A stretch of DNA of 35,093 nucleotides from the IMG/VR virus record IMGVR_UViG_2529293015_000001; one strand, given 5' to 3'. Source of the stretch: a virus (taxonomy: Duplodnaviria; Heunggongvirae; Uroviricota; Caudoviricetes). Position numbers and translations under genes: made by a program. Positions 10,665-28,901 of this stretch are shown here, piece after piece. The notes under the pieces are model-generated. The model saw nothing but the letters and a program-made list of their open reading frames with translations, ran no database searches and was not told where the DNA came from. The stretch's first letter is position 1. Each line of letters begins with the position of its first letter.

Positions 10665-14345
<3,681 letters not shown>

Positions 14346-14365
<20 letters not shown>

Positions 14366-15665
14366 TCTCCCGCATATTGCCAGCATGGCCTTTAATGAGC
14401 CGCTGATGCTTGAACCCGCCTATGCGCGGGTTTTCTTTTGTGCGCTTGCAGGCCAGCTTGGGATCAGCCGCCTGACGGATGCGGTGTCCGGCGACAGCCT
14501 GACTGCCCAGGAGGCACTCGCGACGCTGGCATTATCCGGTGATGATGACGGACCACGACAGGCCCGCAGTTATCAGGTCATGAACGGCATCGCCGTGCTG
14601 CCGGTGTCCGGCACGCTGGTCAGCCGGACGCGGGCGCTGCAGCCGTACTCGGGGATGACCGGTTACAACGGCATTATCGCCCGTCTGCAACAGGCTGCCA
14701 GCGATCCGATGGTGGACGGCATTCTGCTCGATATGGACACGCCCGGCGGGATGGTGGCGGGGGCATTTGACTGCGCTGACATCATCGCCCGTGTGCGTGA
14801 CATAAAACCGGTATGGGCGCTTGCCAACGACATGAACTGCAGTGCAGGTCAGTTGCTTGCCAGTGCCGCCTCCCGGCGTCTGGTCACGCAGACCGCCCGG
14901 ACAGGCTCCATCGGCGTCATGATGGCTCACAGTAATTACGGTGCTGCGCTGGAGAAACAGGGTGTGGAAATCACGCTGATTTACAGCGGCAGCCATAAGG
15001 TGGATGGCAACCCCTACAGCCATCTTCCGGATGACGTCCGGGAGACACTGCAGTCCCGGATGGACGCAACCCGCCAGATGTTTGCGCAGAAGGTGTCGGC
15101 ATATACCGGCCTGTCCGTGCAGGCTGTGCTGGATACCGAGGCTGCAGTGTACAGCGGTCAGGAGGCCATTGATGCCGGACTGGCTGATGAACTTGTTAAC
15201 AGCACCGATGCGATCACCGTCATGCGTGATGCACTGGATGCACGTAAATCCCGTCTCTCAGGAGGGCGAATGACCAAAGAGACTCAATCAACAACTGTTT
15301 CAGCCACTGCTTCGCAGGCTGACGTTACTGACGTGGTGCCAGCGACGGAGGGCGAGAACGCCAGCGCGGCGCAGCCGGACGTGAACGCGCAGATCACCGC
15401 AGCGGTTGCGGCAGAAAACAGCCGCATTATGGGGATCCTCAACTGTGAGGAGGCTCACGGACGCGAAGAACAGGCACGCGTGCTGGCAGAAACCCCCGGT
15501 ATGACCGTGAAAACGGCCCGCCGCATTCTGGCCGCAGCACCACAGAGTGCACAGGCGCGCAGTGACACTGCGCTGGATCGTCTGATGCAGGGGGCACCGG
15601 CACCGCTGGCTACAGGTAACCCGGCATCTGATGCCGTTAACGATTTGCTGAACACACCAGTGTAA
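14346..15665 (+). CDS. C: Head maturation protease / minor capsid protein C (S49/ClpP-like)
   Basis: GTG 14346 overlaps B by 20 nt as in lambda; 439 aa; the ORF-track start 14211 is an in-frame upstream extension. Confidence 0.85.
15060..15665 (+). CDS. nu3: Scaffolding protein Nu3, in-frame internal start within C
   Basis: In-frame ATG 15060 (MDATRQMF...) at the offset expected from lambda C/Nu3 coordinates; Ala-rich C-terminal part. Confidence 0.55.
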   Translation: MDATRQMFAQKVSAYTGLSVQAVLDTEAAVYSGQEAIDAGLADELVNSTDAITVMRDALDARKSRLSGGRMTKETQSTTVSATASQADVTDVVPATEGENASAAQPDVNAQITAAVAAENSRIMGILNCEEAHGREEQARVLAETPGMTVKTARRILAAAPQSAQARSDTALDRLMQGAPAPLATGNPASDAVNDLLNTPV

Positions 15666-20061: not shown

Positions 20062-20477
20062 GTTTTGCCCTGAAACTGGCGCGCGAGATGGGGCGACCCG
20101 ACTGGCGTGCCATGCTTGCCGGGATGTCATCCACGGAGTATGCCGACTGGCACCGCTTTTACAGTACCCATTATTTTCATGATGTTCTGCTGGATATGCA
20201 CTTTTCCGGGCTGACGTACACCGTACTCAGCCTGTTTTTCAGCGATCCGGATATGCATCCGCTGGATTTCAGTCTGCTGAACCGGCGCGAGGCTGACGAA
20301 GAGCCTGAAGATGATGTGCTGATGCAGAAAGCGGCAGGGCTTGCCGGAGGTGTCCGCTTTGGCCCGGACGGGAATGAAGTTATCCCCGCTTCCCCGGATG
20401 TGGCGGACATGACGGAGGATGACGTAATGCTGATGACAGTATCAGAAGGGATCGCAGGAGGAGTCCGGTATGGCTGA
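20043..20477 (+). CDS. T: T reading frame of tail assembly chaperone, expressed as G-T fusion by -1 frameshifting
   Basis: Open -1 frame from the slippery site to 20477, overlapping the H start, as in lambda. Confidence 0.75.
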   Translation: MFDGELSFALKLAREMGRPDWRAMLAGMSSTEYADWHRFYSTHYFHDVLLDMHFSGLTYTVLSLFFSDPDMHPLDFSLLNRREADEEPEDDVLMQKAAGLAGGVRFGPDGNEVIPASPDVADMTEDDVMLMTVSEGIAGGVRYG

Positions 20478-23019
20478 ACCGGTAGGCGATCTGGTCGTTG
20501 ATTTGAGTCTGGATGCGGCCAGATTTGACGAGCAGATGGCCAGAGTCAGGCGTCATTTTTCCGGTACGGAAAGTGATGCGAAAAAAACAGCGGCAGTCGT
20601 TGAACAGTCAATGAACCGGCAGGCGCTGGCTGCACAGAAAGCGGGGATTTCCGTCGGACAGTATAAAGCCGCCATGCGTATGCTTCCTGCACAGTTCACC
20701 GACGTGGCCACGCAGCTTGCAGGCGGGCAAAGTCCGTGGCTGATCCTGCTGCAACAGGGGGGGCAGGTTAAGGACTCCTTCGGCGGGATGATCCCCATGT
20801 TCAGGGGGCTTGCCGGTGCGATCACCCTGCCGATGGTCGGGGCCACCTCGCTGGCGGTGGCGACCGGTGCGCTGGCGTATGCCTGGTATCAGGGCAACTC
20901 AACCCTGTCCGATTTCAACAAAACGCTGGTCCTTTCCGGCAATCAGGCGGGACTGACGGCAGATCGTATGTTGGTCCTGTCCAGAGCCGGGCAGGCGGCA
21001 GGGCTGACGTTTAACCAGACCAGCGAGTCACTCAGCGCACTGGTTAAGGCGGGGGTAAGCGGTGAGGCTCAGATTGCGTCCATCAGCCAGAGTGTGGCGC
21101 GTTTCTCCTCTGCATCCGGCGTGGAGGTGGACAAGGTCGCTGAAGCCTTCGGGAAGCTGACCACAGACCCGACGTCGGGGCTGACGGCGATGGCACGCCA
21201 GTTCCATAACGTGACGGCGGAGCAGATTGCGTATGTTGCTCAGTTGCAGCGTTCCGGCGATGAAGCCGGGGCATTGCAGGCGGCGAACGAGGCCGCAACG
21301 AAAGGGTTTGATGACCAGACCCGCCGCCTGAAAGAGAACATGGGCACGCTGGAGACCTGGGCAGACAGGACAGCGCGGGCATTCAAATCCATGTGGGATG
21401 CGGTGCTGGATATTGGTCGTCCTGATACCGCGCAGGAGATGCTGATTAAGGCAGAGGCTGCGTTTAAGAAAGCAGACGACATCTGGAATCTGCGCAAGGA
21501 TGATTATTTTGTTAACGATGAAGCGCGGGCGCGTTACTGGGATGATCGTGAAAAGGCCCGTCTTGCGCTTGAAGCCGCCCGAAAGAAGGCTGAGCAGCAG
21601 ACTCAACAGGACAAAAATGCGCAGCAGCAGAGCGATACCGAAGCGTCACGGCTGAAATATACCGAAGAGGCGCAGAAGGCTTACGAACGCCTGCAGACGC
21701 CGCTGGAGAAATATACCGCCCGTCAGGAAGAACTGAACAAGGCACTGAAAGACGGGAAAATCCTGCAGGCGGATTACAACACGCTGATGGCGGCGGCGAA
21801 AAAGGATTATGAAGCGACGCTGAAAAAGCCGAAACAGTCCGGCGTGAAGGTGTCTGCGGGCGATCGTCAGGAGGACAGTGCTCATGCTGCCCTGCTGACG
21901 CTTCAGGCAGAACTCCGGACGCTGGAGAAGCATGCCGGAGCGAATGAGAAAATCAGCCAGCAGCGCCGGGATTTGTGGAAGGCAGAAAGTCAGTTCGCGG
22001 TACTGGAGGAGACGGCACAACGTCGCCAGCTGTCCGCACAGGAGAAATCCCTGCTGGCGCATAAAGATGAGACGCTGGAGTACAAACGCCAGCTGGCTGC
22101 ACTTGGCGACAAGGTTACGTATCAGGAGCGCCTGAACGCGCTGGCGCAGCAGGCGGATAAATTCGCACAGCAGCAACGGGCAAAACGGGCCGCCATTGAT
22201 GCAAAAAACCGGGGGCTGACTGACCGGCAGGCAGCGTGGGAAGCCACGGAACAGCGCCTGAAGGAACAGTATGGCGATAATCCTCTGGCGCTGAATAACG
22301 TCATGTCAGAGCAGAAAAAGACCTGGGCGGCTGAAGACCAGCTTCGCGGGAGCTGGATGGCAGGCCTGAAGTCCGGCTGGAGTGAGTGGGAAGAGAGCGC
22401 CACGGACAGTATGTCGCAGGTAAAAAGTGCAGCCACGCAGACCTTTGATGGTATTGCACAGAATATGGCGGCGATGCTGACCGGCAGTGAACAGAACTGG
22501 CGCAGCTTCACCCGTTCCGTGCTGTCCATGATGACAGAAATTCTGCTTAAGCAGGCAATGGTGGGGATTGTCGGAAGTATAGGCAGCGCCATTGGCGGCG
22601 GCGCATCAGCGTCAGGCGGTACAGCCATTCAGGCCGCTGCGGCGAAATTCCATTTTGCAACCGGAGGATTTACGGGAACCGGCGGCAAATATGAGCCAGC
22701 GGGGATTGTTCACCGTGGTGAATTTGTCTTCACGAAGGAGGCAACCAGCCGGATTGGCGTGGGGAATCTTTACCGGCTGATGCGCGGCTATGCCACCGGC
22801 GGTTATGTCGGTGGCACCGGAAGTCCGGCGCAAATGCGGCGTTCAGAGGGTATCAGGTTTGAGCAGAACAACAACGTGGTGATTCAGAACGACGGTACGA
22901 ATGGTCTGCCAGGTCCACAGATGATGAAGGCGGTGTATGACATGGCCCGCAAGGGTGCCCGTGATGAAATCCAGGCACAGATGCGCGATGGTGGTCTGTT
23001 CTCCGGAGGTGGACGATGA
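20470..23019 (+). CDS. H: Tail tape-measure protein H
   Basis: 849 aa (4 aa shorter than lambda H); coiled-coil-rich middle, Gly-rich C-terminus. Confidence 0.9.
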   Translation: MAEPVGDLVVDLSLDAARFDEQMARVRRHFSGTESDAKKTAAVVEQSMNRQALAAQKAGISVGQYKAAMRMLPAQFTDVATQLAGGQSPWLILLQQGGQVKDSFGGMIPMFRGLAGAITLPMVGATSLAVATGALAYAWYQGNSTLSDFNKTLVLSGNQAGLTADRMLVLSRAGQAAGLTFNQTSESLSALVKAGVSGEAQIASISQSVARFSSASGVEVDKVAEAFGKLTTDPTSGLTAMARQFHNVTAEQIAYVAQLQRSGDEAGALQAANEAATKGFDDQTRRLKENMGTLETWADRTARAFKSMWDAVLDIGRPDTAQEMLIKAEAAFKKADDIWNLRKDDYFVNDEARARYWDDREKARLALEAARKKAEQQTQQDKNAQQQSDTEASRLKYTEEAQKAYERLQTPLEKYTARQEELNKALKDGKILQADYNTLMAAAKKDYEATLKKPKQSGVKVSAGDRQEDSAHAALLTLQAELRTLEKHAGANEKISQQRRDLWKAESQFAVLEETAQRRQLSAQEKSLLAHKDETLEYKRQLAALGDKVTYQERLNALAQQADKFAQQQRAKRAAIDAKNRGLTDRQAAWEATEQRLKEQYGDNPLALNNVMSEQKKTWAAEDQLRGSWMAGLKSGWSEWEESATDSMSQVKSAATQTFDGIAQNMAAMLTGSEQNWRSFTRSVLSMMTEILLKQAMVGIVGSIGSAIGGGASASGGTAIQAAAAKFHFATGGFTGTGGKYEPAGIVHRGEFVFTKEATSRIGVGNLYRLMRGYATGGYVGGTGSPAQMRRSEGIRFEQNNNVVIQNDGTNGLPGPQMMKAVYDMARKGARDEIQAQMRDGGLFSGGGR

Positions 23020-23345
23020 AAACCTTCCGCTGGAAAGTGAAACCCGGTATGGATGTGGCTTCGGCCCCTTCTGTAAGAAAGGTACGCTTTGGTGATGGCT
23101 GTTCCCAGCGAGCGCCTGCCGGGCTGAATGCCAACCTGAAAACGTACAGCGTGACGCTTTCTGTCCCCCGTGAGGAGGCCACGGTACTGGAGTCGTTTCT
23201 GGAAGAGCACGGGGGCTGGAAAGCCTTTCTGTGGACGCCGCCTTATGAGTGGCGGCAGATAAAGGTGACCTGCGCAAAATGGTCGTCGCGGGTCAGTATG
23301 CTGCGTGTTGAGTTCAGCGCAGAGTTTGAACAGGTGGTGAACTGA
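23016..23345 (+). CDS. M: Tail tip protein M
   Basis: 109 aa, ATGA overlap with H. Confidence 0.85.
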   Translation: MKTFRWKVKPGMDVASAPSVRKVRFGDGCSQRAPAGLNANLKTYSVTLSVPREEATVLESFLEEHGGWKAFLWTPPYEWRQIKVTCAKWSSRVSMLRVEFSAEFEQVVN

Positions 23346-24043
23346 TGCAGGATATCCGGCAGGAAACACTGAATGAATGCACCCGTGCGGAGCAGTCGGC
23401 CAGCGTGGTGCTCTGGGAAATCGATCTGACAGAGGTCGGTGGAGAACGTTATTTTTTCTGTAATGAGCAGAACGAAAAAGGTGAGCCGGTCACCTGGCAG
23501 GGGCGACAGTATCAGCCGTATCCCATTCAGGGGAGTGGTTTTGAACTGAATGGCAAAGGCACCAGTACGCGCCCCACGCTGACGGTTTCTAACCTGTACG
23601 GTATGGTCACCGGGATGGCGGAAGATATGCAGAGTCTGGTCGGCGGAACGGTGGTCCGGCGTAAGGTTTACGCCCGTTTTCTGGATGCGGTGAACTTCGT
23701 CAACGGAAACAGTGACGCCGATCCGGAGCAGGAGGTGATCAGCCGCTGGCGTATTGAGCAGTGCAGCGAACTGAGCGCGGTCAGTGCCTCCTTTGTACTG
23801 TCCACGCCGACGGAAACGGACGGCGCTGTTTTTCCGGGGCGCATCATGCTTGCTAATACCTGCACCTGGACCTATCGCGGTGATGAGTGCGGTTATCACG
23901 GTCCGGCGGTCGCGGATGAATATGACCAGCCGACATCCGAAATCACGAAGGATAAATGCAGCAAATGCCTGAGTGGCTGTAAGTTCCGCAATAATGTCGG
24001 CAACTTTGGCGGCTTCCTTTCCATTAACAAACTTTCGCAGTAA
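23345..24043 (+). CDS. L: Tail tip protein L
   Basis: 232 aa; overlaps M stop; four C-terminal Cys. Confidence 0.85.
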   Translation: MQDIRQETLNECTRAEQSASVVLWEIDLTEVGGERYFFCNEQNEKGEPVTWQGRQYQPYPIQGSGFELNGKGTSTRPTLTVSNLYGMVTGMAEDMQSLVGGTVVRRKVYARFLDAVNFVNGNSDADPEQEVISRWRIEQCSELSAVSASFVLSTPTETDGAVFPGRIMLANTCTWTYRGDECGYHGPAVADEYDQPTSEITKDKCSKCLSGCKFRNNVGNFGGFLSINKLSQ

Positions 24044-24192
24044 ATCCCATGACAGAGACAGAATCAGCGATTCTGGCGCACGCCCGGCGATGTGCGCCAG
24101 CGGAGTCGTGCGGCTTCGTGGTAAGCACGCCGGAGGGGGAAAGATATTTCCCCTGCGTGAATATCTCCGGTGAGCCGGAGGCGTATTTCCGT

Positions 24193-24792
24193 ATGTCGCC
24201 GGAAGACTGGCTGCAGGCAGAAATGCAGGGTGAGATTGTGGCGCTGGTCCACAGCCACCCCGGTGGTCTGCCCTGGCTGAGTGAGGCCGACCGGCGGCTG
24301 CAGGTGCAGAGTGATTTGCCGTGGTGGCTGGTCTGCCGGGGGACGATTCATAAGTTCCGCTGTGTGCCGCATCTCACCGGGCGGCGCTTTGAGCACGGGG
24401 TGACGGACTGTTACACGCTGTTCCGGGATGCTTATCATCTGGCGGGGATTGAGATGCCGGATTTTCATCGCGAGGATGACTGGTGGCGTCACGGTCAGAA
24501 TCTCTATCTGGATAATCTGGAGGCCACAGGGCTGTATCAGGTGCCGTTGTCATCAGCACAACCGGGCGATGTGCTGCTGTGCTGTTTTGGTTCATCGGTG
24601 CCGAATCATGCCGCCATTTACTGTGGTGACGGCGAGCTGCTGCACCATATTCCTGAACAACTGAGCAAACGAGAGAGGTATACCGACAAATGGCAGCGAC
24701 GCACACACTCCCTCTGGCGTCACCGGGCATGGCACGCATCTGCCTTTACGGGGATTTGCAACGATTTGGCCGCCGCATCGACCTTCGTGTGA
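24193..24792 (+). CDS. K: Tail tip assembly protein K (JAMM/MPN plus NlpC/P60-like); lambda-equivalent start, ORF is open from 24049
   Basis: ATG 24193 corresponds to the lambda K start by offset; JAMM motif HSHPGGLPWLSEAD; later Cys/His pair of NlpC/P60 type; 48 in-frame codons upstream. Confidence 0.75.
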   Translation: MSPEDWLQAEMQGEIVALVHSHPGGLPWLSEADRRLQVQSDLPWWLVCRGTIHKFRCVPHLTGRRFEHGVTDCYTLFRDAYHLAGIEMPDFHREDDWWRHGQNLYLDNLEATGLYQVPLSSAQPGDVLLCCFGSSVPNHAAIYCGDGELLHHIPEQLSKRERYTDKWQRRTHSLWRHRAWHASAFTGICNDLAAASTFV

Positions 24793-25361
24793 AAACGGGG
24801 GCTGAAGCTATCCGGGCGCTGGCCACACAGCTCCCGGCGTTTCGTCAGAAACTGAGCGACGGCTGGTATCAGGTACGGATTGCCGGGCGGGATGTCAGCA
24901 CGTCCGGATTAACGGCGCAGTTACATGAGACTCTGCCTGATGGCGCTGTGATTCATATTGTTCCCAGAGTCGCCGGGGCCAAGTCAGGTGGTGTATTCCA
25001 GATTGTCCTGGGAGCTGCCGCCATTGCCGGATCATTCTTTACTGCCGGAGCCACCCTTGCAGCATGGGGGGCAGCCATTGGGGCCGGTGGTATGACCGGC
25101 ATCCTGTTTTCTCTCGGTGCCAGTATGGTGCTCGGTGGTGTGGCGCAGATGCTGGCACCGAAAGCCAGAACTCCCCGTACACAGACAACGGATAACGGCA
25201 AACAGAACACCTATTTTTCCTCACTGGATAACATGGTTGCTCAGGGCAATGTTTTGCCTGTTCTGTACGGTGAAATGCGTGTGGGGTCGCGGGTGGTTTC
25301 TCAGGAGATCAGCACGGCAGACGAAGGGGACGGTGGTCAGGTTGTGGTGATTGGTCGCTGA
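24690..25361 (+). CDS. I: Tail tip protein I
   Basis: 223 aa; overlaps K 3' end as in lambda; Gly/Ala-rich hydrophobic C-terminal part. Confidence 0.85.
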   Translation: MAATHTLPLASPGMARICLYGDLQRFGRRIDLRVKTGAEAIRALATQLPAFRQKLSDGWYQVRIAGRDVSTSGLTAQLHETLPDGAVIHIVPRVAGAKSGGVFQIVLGAAAIAGSFFTAGATLAAWGAAIGAGGMTGILFSLGASMVLGGVAQMLAPKARTPRTQTTDNGKQNTYFSSLDNMVAQGNVLPVLYGEMRVGSRVVSQEISTADEGDGGQVVVIGR

Positions 25362-25421: not shown

Positions 25422-28400
25422 ATGGGTAAAGGCAGCAGTAAGGGGCATACCCCGCGCGAAGCGAAGGATAACCTGAAATCCACGCAGCTGCTGAGTGTGA
25501 TCGATGCCATCAGCGAAGGGCCGATTGAAGGTCCGGTGGATGGATTAAAAAGCGTGCTGCTGAACAGTACACCGGTGCTGGACAGTGAGGGGAATACCAA
25601 CATCTCCGGTGTCACGGTGGTGTTCCGGGCAGGTGAGCAGGAGCAGACACCGCCGGAGGGATTTGAATCCTCCGGTTCCGAGACGGTGCTGGGTACGGAA
25701 GTGAAATACGAAACGCCGATCACCCGGACCATCACGTCTGCAAACATCGACCGTCTGCGCTTTACCTTCGGTGTGCAGGCACTGGTGGAAACCACCTCAA
25801 AGGGTGACCGGAATCCGTCGGAAGTCCGCCTGCTGGTTCAGATACAACGTAACGGTGGCTGGGTGACAGAAAAAGACATCACCATTAAGGGCAAAACCAC
25901 GTCGCAGTATCTGGCCTCGGTGGTGGTGGATAACCTGCCGCCGCGACCGTTCAATATCCGGATGCGCAGGATGACACCGGACAGCACCACAGACCAGCTG
26001 CAGAACAAAACGCTCTGGTCGTCATACACCGAAATCATCGATGTGAAACAGTGCTACCCGAACACGGCACTGGTCGGCGTGCAGGTGGATTCGGAGCAGT
26101 TCGGCAGCCAGCAGGTGAGCCGTAATTATCATCTTCGCGGGCGCATTCTGCAGGTGCCGTCGAACTATAACCCGCAGACGCGGCAATACAGCGGTATCTG
26201 GGACGGGACGTTTAAACCGGCATACAGCAACAACATGGCCTGGTGTCTGTGGGATATGCTGACCCATCCGCGCTACGGCATGGGGAAGCGTCTCGGTGCG
26301 GCGGATGTGGACAAATGGGCGCTGTATGTCATCGGCCAGAATTGCGACCAGTCGGTGCCGGATGGCTTTGGTGGCACGGAGCCGCGCATCACCTGTAACG
26401 CTTACCTGACCACGCAGCGCAAGGCGTGGGATGTGCTCAGTGATTTCTGCTCGGCGATGCGCTGTATGCCGGTATGGAACGGGCAGACGCTGACGTTCGT
26501 GCAGGACCGACCGTCGGATAAGGTGTGGACCTATAACCGCAGTAATGTGGTGATGCCGGATGATGGCGCGCCGTTCCGCTACAGCTTCAGCGCCCTGAAG
26601 GACCGCCATAATGCCGTTGAGGTGAACTGGATTGACCCGAATAACGGCTGGGAGACGGCGACAGAGCTTGTTGAAGATACGCAGGCCATTCTCCGTTACG
26701 GTCGTAACGTCACGAAGATGGATGCCTTTGGCTGTACCAGCCGGGGGCAAGCACACCGCGCCGGGCTGTGGCTGATTAAAACGGAGCTGCTGGAAACGCA
26801 GACCGTGGACTTCAGCGTGGGTGCAGAAGGGCTTCGCCATGTACCGGGCGATGTCATTGAAATCTGTGATGATGACTATGCGGGTATCAGCATCGGCGGG
26901 CGCGTGCTGGCGGTGAACAGCCAGACGCGGACACTGACGCTCGACCGTGAAATCACGCTGCCATCCTCCGGCACCACGCTGATAAGCCTGGTTGACGGAC
27001 AGGGGAATCCGGTCAGCGTGGAGGTCCAGTCCGTCACCGACGGCGTGAAGGTGAAAGTGAGCCGGGTTCCTGACGGCGTTGCCGAGTACAGCGTGTGGGG
27101 GCTGAAGCTGCCGACGCTGCGCCAGCGCCTGTTCCGCTGTGTGAGTATCCGTGAGAACGATGACGGCACGTATGCCATCACTGCCGTGCAGCATGTGCCG
27201 GAGAAAGAAGCCATCGTGGATAACGGGGCGCACTTTGACGGCGACCAGAGCGGAACGGTGAATGGCGTTACTCCGCCAGCAGTGCAGCACCTGACCGCAG
27301 AAGTCACCGCAGACAGCGGGGAATACCAGGTGCTGGCGCGCTGGGATACGCCGAAGGTGGTGAAGGGGGTGAGCTTTATGCTTCGCCTGACCGTGGCAGC
27401 GGATGACGGCAGTGAGCGGCTGGTCAGCACGGCCCGGACGACGGAAACCACATACCGCTTCAGGCAACTGGCGCTGGGGCGTTACACGCTGACGGTCCGG
27501 GCGGTAAATGCGTGGGGACAGCAGGGCGATCCGGCATCGGTATCGTTCCGGATTGCCGCACCGGCAGCGCCGTCGCGGATTGAGCTGACGCCGGGCTATT
27601 TTCAGATCACCGCCACGCCGCATCTTGCGGTTTATGATCCGACGGTACAGTTTGAGTTCTGGTTCTCGGAAAAGCGGATTGCGGATATCAGGCAGGTTGA
27701 AGCCAGCGCGCGTTATCTTGGTACGGCGCTGTACTGGATAGCCGCCAGTATCAATATCAAACCGGGCCATGATTATTATTTTTACATTCGCAGTGTGAAC
27801 ACCGTTGGCAAATCGGCATTCGTGGAGGCTGTTGGCCAGCCGAGTGATGATGCATCCGGCTATCTGGATTTTTTCAAAGGCGAGATAGGGAAAACCCATC
27901 TGGCTCAGGAGCTGTGGACGCAGATTGATAACGGTCAGCTTGCGCCTGACCTGGCTGAAATCAGGACGTCCATTACGGATGTCAGCAATGAAGTCACGCA
28001 GACCGTCAATAAGAAACTGGAAGACCAGAGTGCGGCAATTCAGCAGATACAGAAGGTTCAGGTTGATACAAATAATAACCTGAACAGCATGTGGGCTGTG
28101 AAGCTGCAGCAGATGCAGGACGGACGCCTTTATATCGCGGGTATTGGTGCCGGTATTGAGAATACCCCTGACGGCATGCAGAGTCAGGTGCTGCTGGCGG
28201 CGGACAGGATTGCGATGGTTAATCCTGCGAATGGCAACACAAAGCCGATGTTTGTTGGTCAGGGCGATCAGATATTCATGAACGAAGTGTTCCTGAAATA
28301 TCTGACGGCTCCCACCATTACCAGCGGCGGTAATCCTCCGGCATTTTCCCTGACACCGGACGGGCGGCTGACGGCGAAAAATGCCGATATCAGCGGTAAC

Positions 28401-28901
28401 GTGAATGCGAACTCCGGGACGCTCAACAACGTCACGATTAACGAGAACTGCCGGGTTCTGGGAAAACTGTCCGCGAACCAGATTGAAGGCGATCTCGTTA
28501 AAACAGTGGGCAAAGCTTTCCCCCGGGACTCCCGTGCACCGGAGCGGTGGCCATCAGGGACCATTACCGTCAGGATTTATGACGATCAGCCGTTTGACCG
28601 GCAGATTGTTATTCCGGCGGTGGCATTCAGCGGCGCTAAACATGAGAGAGAGCATACTGATATTTACTCCTCATGCCGTCTGATAGTGCGGAAAAACGGT
28701 GCTGAAATTTATAACCGTACCGCGCTGGATAATACGCTGATTTACAGTGGCGTTATTGATATGCCTGCCGGTCACGGTCACATGACACTGGAGTTTTCGG
28801 TGTCAGCATGGCTGGTAAATGGCTGGTATCCCACAGCAAGTATCAGCGATTTGCTGGTTGTTGTGATGAAGAAAGCCACTGCAGGCATCACTATTAGCTG
28901 A
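25422..28901 (+). CDS. J: Central tail fiber / host-specificity protein J
   Basis: 1159 aa (about 27 aa longer than the 1132 aa recalled for lambda J); N-terminal [24 protein letters not shown]... as in lambda. Confidence 0.9.

Follow-up and report, generated by a model that had tools for sequence, protein, structure and literature searches.

Gene K and its neighbours in the tail module

The window (the whole 35,093-nt stretch of IMG/VR virus record IMGVR_UViG_2529293015_000001), a lambda-like prophage, carries a lambda-type block of tail genes on the + strand in the order H (20470-23019), M (23016-23345), L (23345-24043), K (24049-24792), I (24690-25361) and J (25422-28901). As in lambda, K lies between the gene for minor tail protein L and that for the ubiquitin-like protein I, upstream of J, and so can be classified as a gpK/TAPK gene. 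The K ORF has 247 codons, and ATG 24049 is its first start codon past an in-frame stop (Table 1). This ORF opens just past the L stop codon, and the frame is open for 48 codons (144 nt, 24049 versus 24193) upstream of the ATG equivalent to the lambda start, both as set out in a preliminary description of this DNA; the gap from the L stop is 5 nt. Residues 21-47 read ...CGFVVSTPEGERYFPCVNISGEPEAYF, and CAPAESCGFVVSTPEGER and YFPCVNISGEPEAYFR are peptides from within residues 1-48. At the base composition of the window, an open stretch of 48 codons has a chance probability of P ~0.145. The open frame alone is therefore not significant, and its significance comes from homology and selection.

The two candidate start codons differ in their upstream context. 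As the preliminary description had noted, GGAGG stands 11 nt upstream of ATG 24193 (at 24177-24181), whereas ATG 24049 has no clear Shine-Dalgarno sequence: no 4-mer of AGGAGG is present in the 25 nt preceding it in the window.

Table 1. Features of gene K and adjacent sequence (window coordinates)
Feature	Position	Strand	Remarks
L ORF	23345..24043	+	From the ORF list
Stop codon (TAA) of tail gene L	24041..24043	+	5 nt (ATCCC) upstream of the K ATG
Full K CDS	24049..24792	+	247 aa, 28.2 kDa; includes stop TGA 24790-24792
48 codons left out of the lambda-style annotation	24049..24192	+	Encode one helix (3-15) and two strands (21-27, 30-36) of JAB
JAB/JAMM domain (Prok-JAB, PF14464)	24058..24360	+	Residues 4-104; 52.2 bits
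Glu19 codon (GAG), E-x-C-G motif	24103..24105	+	Predicted to act as general base in the JAMM active site
GGAGG (Shine-Dalgarno-like)	24177..24181	+	Within codons E42-P43-E44-A45; 11 nt to internal ATG
G missing from the lambda reference	24183..24183	+	Falls between NC_001416 14266 and 14267; K frame breaks there
Internal ATG (Met49)	24193..24195	+	144 nt (48 codons) downstream of ATG 24049; equivalent to lambda start 14276
H68-S-H70-x7-S78-x2-D81, predicted zinc-ligand part of JAMM motif	24250..24291	+	From the window sequence
NlpC/P60 (PF00877) cysteine-peptidase domain	24379..24720	+	Residues 111-224; candidate triad Cys121 (24409-24411), His187, His199
Overlap of K 3' end with start of gene I (other frame)	24690..24792	+	I ORF 24690..25361

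Conserved domains

The 247-aa K protein has two conserved domains. The first matches Pfam Prok-JAB with 52.2 bits (cut-off 25; profile positions 4-112 of 114) and the second matches Pfam NlpC/P60 with 49.2 bits (cut-off 23; profile positions 1-105 of 105). In the 199-aa form, the Prok-JAB match covers profile positions 63-112 only and, with 23.3 bits, does not reach the cut-off. Loss of the 48 codons leaves the NlpC/P60 domain (residues 111-224) unaffected.

The JAMM motif has been defined as EXnHS/THX7SXXD, and in AfJAMM the Glu of this motif (E22) serves as general acid-base catalyst, with zinc bound by the two His residues and the Asp (PMC300881). K has the complete motif, E19...H68-S69-H70-x7-S78-x2-D81, with the Glu encoded in the 48 upstream codons; residues 68-81 (24250-24291) read HSHPGGLPWLSEAD. 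The AfJAMM residues E22/H67/H69/S77/D80 correspond to E19/H68/H70/S78/D81 of K with near-identical spacing. In profile-to-PDB alignments, 2KCQ, 2KKS and PfJAMM1 are matched from position 3-15 with E-x-C-G on E-x-C-G, and Glu19 aligns with the Glu of PEEGCGFL, PNEACGLL and VEVCGFL in solved JAB/JAMM-family proteins.

Conservation was assessed in an alignment of 67 relatives with identity down to 38%. Seven of the 31 invariant columns fall within the first 48 residues (H11, E19, C21, G22, Y33, N38 and F47), Glu19 being kept in 67/67 sequences. Further along the JAB domain, S69 is invariant and H68, H70, S78 and D81 are each conserved in at least 90% of the sequences. D120, C121, N186, H187 and H199 of the second domain are also invariant; the Cys/His triad in this domain is a presumptive assignment by analogy with the family.

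These alignments support the assignment of the 48 upstream codons as encoding the first half of a JAB/JAMM domain, including an invariant and predicted catalytic Glu19. Since Glu19 and the N-terminal half of JAB lie in these codons, the 199-aa form would lose the catalytic Glu together with roughly half the fold. The preliminary description had suggested that the upstream segment precedes a JAMM motif and may supply the acidic residue of a complete MPN/JAMM fold. The motif is present at 24250-24291 (H68-S-H70-x7-S78-x2-D81), and the Glu19 of E-x-C-G, kept in all 67 relatives, is a good candidate for the acidic residue.

Two PHROGs families match the N-terminal part of K: phrog_7305 ("unknown function", 76 positions) matches residues 1-76 (24049-24276) and phrog_2635 ("tail protein", 135 positions) matches residues 1-132. 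N-terminal K fragments are thus catalogued as separate phage protein families, probably as a result of split or frameshifted gene calls.

Structure prediction

The 247-aa and 199-aa forms were modelled with AlphaFold from the same 67-sequence alignment. The longer form gave a pLDDT of 89.2 and a pTM of 0.82, with residues 1-40 at 91-96. The shorter form gave a pLDDT of 79.7 and a pTM of 0.68 (JAB remnant 59-84), and its C-terminal helix was less confident. In the 247-aa model, the upstream segment forms a helix (residues 3-15) and two strands (21-27 and 30-36) arranged as a beta-hairpin, which is consistent with the earlier proposal that this segment provides N-terminal secondary structure of the fold.

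In a Foldseek search against the PDB, the 247-aa model is most similar to PfJAMM1 (5LD9; TM-score 0.65 on the target, E = 3e-5), followed by Rpn11, AMSH and CSN5, and its second domain matches NlpC/P60 enzymes including MepS. For the 199-aa model, only NlpC/P60 proteins are found among the top 50 matches. The full-length protein models better (pLDDT 89 versus 80) and is the only one of the two whose model matches a solved JAMM enzyme, an outcome in favour of the longer form in the structural comparison that the preliminary description had proposed. The 247-aa K protein is predicted to have an MPN fold.

PfJAMM1 (5LD9/5LDA), which was crystallised with the ubiquitin-like protein SAMP2, has the same fold as the modelled JAB domain of K. 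Identity to the archaeal and prokaryotic stand-alone JAMM enzymes (AfJAMM, PfJAMM1) is ~20%, and K differs from both by its fusion to NlpC/P60 and its tail-assembly role. Its C-terminal domain appears to have the fold and the conserved Cys/His residues in common with MepS/Spr of Escherichia coli and with CwlO. These NlpC/P60 proteins are peptidoglycan endopeptidases, whereas K is not found in virions and gpI has been suggested as its target (Iyer et al., PMC1779556). Because K is absent from virions, a cell-wall role is not implied.

Selection and conservation of the upstream segment

A scan of viral contigs gave relatives at 97-100% identity only; the more divergent comparisons come from genome-contig loci and protein searches. 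Compared with relatives of 97% to 75% protein identity, codons 2-48 have dN/dS values of 0.09-0.40, like the rest of the gene. Among 89 close relatives, variable sites in codons 2-48 are distributed over the first, second and third codon positions as 11/7/29 (chi-square P = 1.6e-4), and the next two segments of K show 19/6/36 and 21/9/68. This third-position bias is absent from codons 214-247 (11/12/15), as their dual coding with gene I would predict. Codons 2-48 are under purifying selection and evolve as coding DNA. The conservation analysis put forward in the preliminary description thus comes out on the coding side, with both dN/dS and codon-position bias departing from a non-coding pattern.

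The segment is also retained in distant relatives. In those with 46-49% identity (from Erwinia, Pantoea, Hafnia, Xanthomonas and others), the N-terminal segment is kept and the ORF begins there. In an exhaustive search of cluster representatives (n=101; 35-61% identity), the alignment of 96 of the 101 proteins starts no later than residue 19 of the query and residue 31 of the relative itself, with a median protein length of 244 aa. The K ATG lies between a 4-nt overlap with the L stop and 11 nt downstream of it in all enterobacterial relatives, often as TGATG (1-nt overlap) or ATGATG; in Xanthomonas, 63 nt separate the L stop from the K ATG.

The internal start is less well kept. Met49 is encoded by ATG in 87 of 102 unique sequences and is replaced by Ile or Leu codons (ATC, ATA, ATT or CTG) in the remaining 15, and it is lost (CTG, ATA) even from intact genes that are 96-98% identical to K of the window. 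The GGAGG sequence is weakened to GGAAG in two close relatives and is absent at 75% identity.

The K segment was found in 4,331 of 5,426 complete E. coli genomes. The window K protein is 100% identical to that of a prophage of Escherichia ruysiae (locus L007), the adjacent L protein being only ~93% identical, which suggests from the sequence comparison (window 23345-24792) that a mosaic junction lies near the L/K boundary. In three chromosomal copies of K, at L055 and L057 (both in E. coli ECMA0423) and at L059 (in Shigella flexneri), frameshifts or stop codons interrupt the first 50-145 codons, and these copies resemble prophage remnants in decay. Among database proteins there are also several L-K or K-I fusions (e.g., P0022, P0015 and P0030).

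A missing base in the lambda reference sequence

Lambda K is annotated at 14276..14875 of NC_001416 (NP_040598, 199 aa), a start that corresponds to window position 24193. It is the same gene as K of the window, set in the same H-M-L-K-I-J order, and the two sequences are collinear except for one base. The 1-kb K region is ~97% identical in nucleotide sequence between the window and the lambda-group phage records. Where the window has GGAGGCGTATTTCC, NC_001416 reads GGAGGC-TATTTCC. Among 16 sequence variants at this site, NC_001416 is the sole carrier of the 1-nt gap; in L055 and L057, which are decayed copies, the damage is of another kind. In NC_001416, the frame from ATG 14133 meets a stop after 76 codons, and the K frame, as read from the sequence, has a TGA at 14255-14257. 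The missing G and this TGA together make ATG 14276 the first possible K start, giving 199 aa. With one missing G placing the two parts of K in different frames, the annotators in 1982 could only pick 14276.

Other lambda DNA does not have this gap. Seventeen contigs that match lambda without a single mismatch over up to 2,301 nt, lambda imm21 and HK630 among them, all have the extra G after 14266. K of the window is ~98% identical to the K protein of these lambda-identical contigs. Most of these represent lambda DNA, at low coverage, that has contaminated the assemblies of unrelated bacteria. More widely, short low-coverage contigs that are identical or nearly identical to lambda were found in assemblies of Neobacillus, Pseudomonas, Chromatium, Shewanella, Bradyrhizobium, Streptomyces, Veillonella and others (loci L008-L019, L028, L029, L032, L033, L037, L039-L043, L047, L058 and L060-L062). 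The lambda-identical contigs in unrelated assemblies are evidently contamination by laboratory lambda DNA and served as an independent resequencing of lambda. A lambda-gt10 transgene has also been resequenced, and "14266 C>CG" is listed among its constant differences from the reference in a paper that does not discuss K (PMC6760142 Table 5).

The lambda reference K therefore starts 48 codons late, and a K of 247 aa is encoded in the window as well as in resequenced lambda DNA. Judged from these sequences, the 199-aa lambda K is an annotation artefact in which the first 45 codons are shifted by the missing G after 14266. The suspicion in the preliminary description that the lambda start had been placed too far downstream is upheld by the G in the 17 contigs and in lambda-gt10. 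The simplest reading of the missing G is a one-base error in the 1982 sequence; a mutation specific to the stock is less likely. Lambda imm21 and HK630 have an intact 247-codon frame yet are annotated with 199 aa: the 14276-type start was later copied by similarity onto phages in which the longer frame is intact.

Annotation in databases

The 247-aa form of K is in wide use. RefSeq PGAP annotates the same 744-nt CDS in E. coli chromosomes as a 247-aa "C40 family peptidase", and the PhiR68_2 and RefSeq ev017 records also have 247 aa. The 2G7b record has 224 aa from a GTG start; the corresponding GTG 24118 was considered as a start for K of the window and rejected, as its use would remove Glu19 and the first strand. 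Large clusters of either length are present in protein databases. Gene callers often take the internal start, and some 199-aa clusters have thousands of members (P0059, P0060, P0064 and P0073). The UniProt entry for lambda K presumably also has 199 aa.

The fusion of JAB and NlpC/P60 domains in K was published in 2006 by Iyer et al. (PMC1779556), who described it beside the ubiquitin-like TAPI and TAPJ. K of the window has the same architecture; no differences from the published one were found, and it is an ordinary member of this group. The 247-aa K is thus already known, as the standard RefSeq form in relatives and through an architecture described in 2006, and the result corrects a long-standing annotation without adding new biology. 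A full-text literature search returned no explicit claim that lambda K is mis-started or that position 14266 is in error, its only match being the MutaMouse variant table (PMC6760142). The tie between the K annotation and one missing reference base is useful but may be known outside the literature searched.

Alternative readings of the K start

One departure from a 247-aa K would be that translation begins only at 24193, the upstream 144 nt being spacer that is not translated or a remnant in decay that happens to be open. The canonical annotation of lambda has this start; 48 codons stay open by chance with P ~0.145, and ATG 24049 lacks a Shine-Dalgarno sequence. The annotation is accounted for by the 1-nt reference gap, however, and the upstream codons show purifying selection, third-position bias and seven invariant residues, including the catalytic Glu. 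The Pfam, PDB-profile and fold matches all need the first 48 residues, and the internal Met is not conserved. Such a reading is already contradicted by the comparative data and is extremely improbable. Another possibility takes the missing G as a real frameshift in the lambda cI857 S7 stock sequenced in 1982, leaving that phage with a split or truncated K and a dispensable JAB half. Laboratory lambda does have one real frameshift, which disrupts stf (PMC10721106), and 10 nt past the lesion there is an internal start preceded by a good Shine-Dalgarno sequence. Against this, the G is present in all 17 lambda-identical contigs (from unrelated assemblies) as well as in the lambda-gt10 transgene, the JAB residues are strongly selected in relatives, and a gel-reading error would be unsurprising in the G/C-rich run GGAGGCG. 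A true frameshift in the stock is accordingly regarded as very unlikely.

A reading in which both starts are used is harder to set aside, although it too is judged unlikely. K of 247 aa would be made together with a 199-aa isoform from AUG 24193, whose NlpC/P60 domain is intact and JAB domain crippled and which could have a role of its own in the closest relatives of lambda. The GGAGG at a workable 11-nt spacing, the ATG at 24193 and the presence of that ATG in 87 of the 102 unique sequences point this way, as do the NlpC/P60-only versions of K in some phages and prophages (Iyer et al., PMC1779556). The loss of the ATG from 15 of the 102, among them intact genes at 96-98% identity, points the other way, as does the weakening of GGAGG in two sequences and its absence at 75% identity. 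The GGAGG is also made up of conserved E-P-E codons, such that constraint on the protein alone can explain it, and the 199-aa form models worse in AlphaFold. In predicted mRNA folds, the start at 24049 is left unpaired and a 7-bp hairpin joins the internal GGAGG to an upstream CUCC, an effect that is weak and, compared with shuffled sequences, not significant (z = -0.5 and -1.5, respectively). The hairpin corresponds to an inverted repeat, CTCCGG (24165-24170) and CCGGAG (24175-24180), within 24164-24181, in which the internal GGAGG pairs with an anti-Shine-Dalgarno-like CUCC (24165-24168). A scan for an internal promoter that could serve 24193 gave two weak consensus matches, none of them suitably placed. 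A more specific version, in which lambda's closest relatives make a coupled full-length K and an internal 199-aa NlpC/P60-only K whose ratio tunes gpI processing, is quite unlikely; in that case, masking of the internal GGAGG by the hairpin would possibly set the ratio of the two products.

Proposed model for the expression and function of K

The preferred reading, given a probability of about 0.9, is that K is translated from AUG 24049 as a 247-residue tail-tip protein and that the 199-aa lambda K is an artefact of the missing G. The view in the preliminary description that functional K would be longer than 199 aa is favoured by JAB completeness, by selection and by the predicted fold match. 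Translation from AUG 24049 most likely starts by coupling to termination of L, as judged from the geometry of the site: the L stop lies 5 nt upstream and the stretch is AU-rich and predicted to be unstructured. Translational coupling to L would also explain the lack of a Shine-Dalgarno sequence.

The N-terminal domain of the full-length protein (residues ~1-105) would be a JAB/JAMM zinc metallopeptidase with Glu19 as the predicted base and His68, His70 and Asp81 as predicted zinc ligands, together with Ser78. The C-terminal domain (~111-224) would be a papain-like NlpC/P60 domain with Cys121, His187 and His199. Lambda gpK is required for tail assembly and is absent from the virion (PMC10721106, PMC12617516), and K would be a non-virion tail-tip assembly factor that combines two domains of peptidase type. 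According to a hypothesis published by Iyer et al. (PMC1779556), K cleaves a ubiquitin-like N-terminal domain off gpI at its C-terminal glycine. In this view, K may process that domain while the tip is being assembled and leave afterwards.

Features of gpI are compatible with such a function. The I ORF has the Pfam domain Lambda_tail_I at residues 14-97. Shortly past this ubiquitin-like domain there is a Gly-Gly at residues 100-101 (24987-24992), in the context …RVAGAKSGG/VFQ…, as in ubiquitin. In the lambda cryo-EM structure, only residues 135-223 of gpI are resolved in the tip, and no gpK is present in virions (PMC10721106). The Lambda_tail_I domain, the Gly-Gly and the gpI residues seen in the virion fit removal of the gpI N-terminal domain by K, although this fit is not proof. 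Gene I has a start problem of its own. From the PGAP start, GTG 24789 (190 aa, overlapping the K stop), the product matches Lambda_tail_I profile positions 26-83 with 69 bits; from 24690 (lambda-style, 223 aa) or 24729 (Met14, 210 aa), it matches positions 2-83 with 100 bits. The PGAP start of gene I is probably too late, a mirror image of the problem with K.

Implications

GpK is among the last of the lambda tail proteins to lack a known mechanism, and recent cryo-EM papers call its role or location unknown (PMC10721106, PMC12617516). Lambda is the reference phage, and the K entry of NC_001416 is missing half of the JAB domain along with the catalytic glutamate. Any work based on this entry, whether cloning, structure prediction, interaction mapping or the design of mutants, would use a crippled protein. 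The practical correction is that K has 247 aa and that a G should be inserted after 14266.
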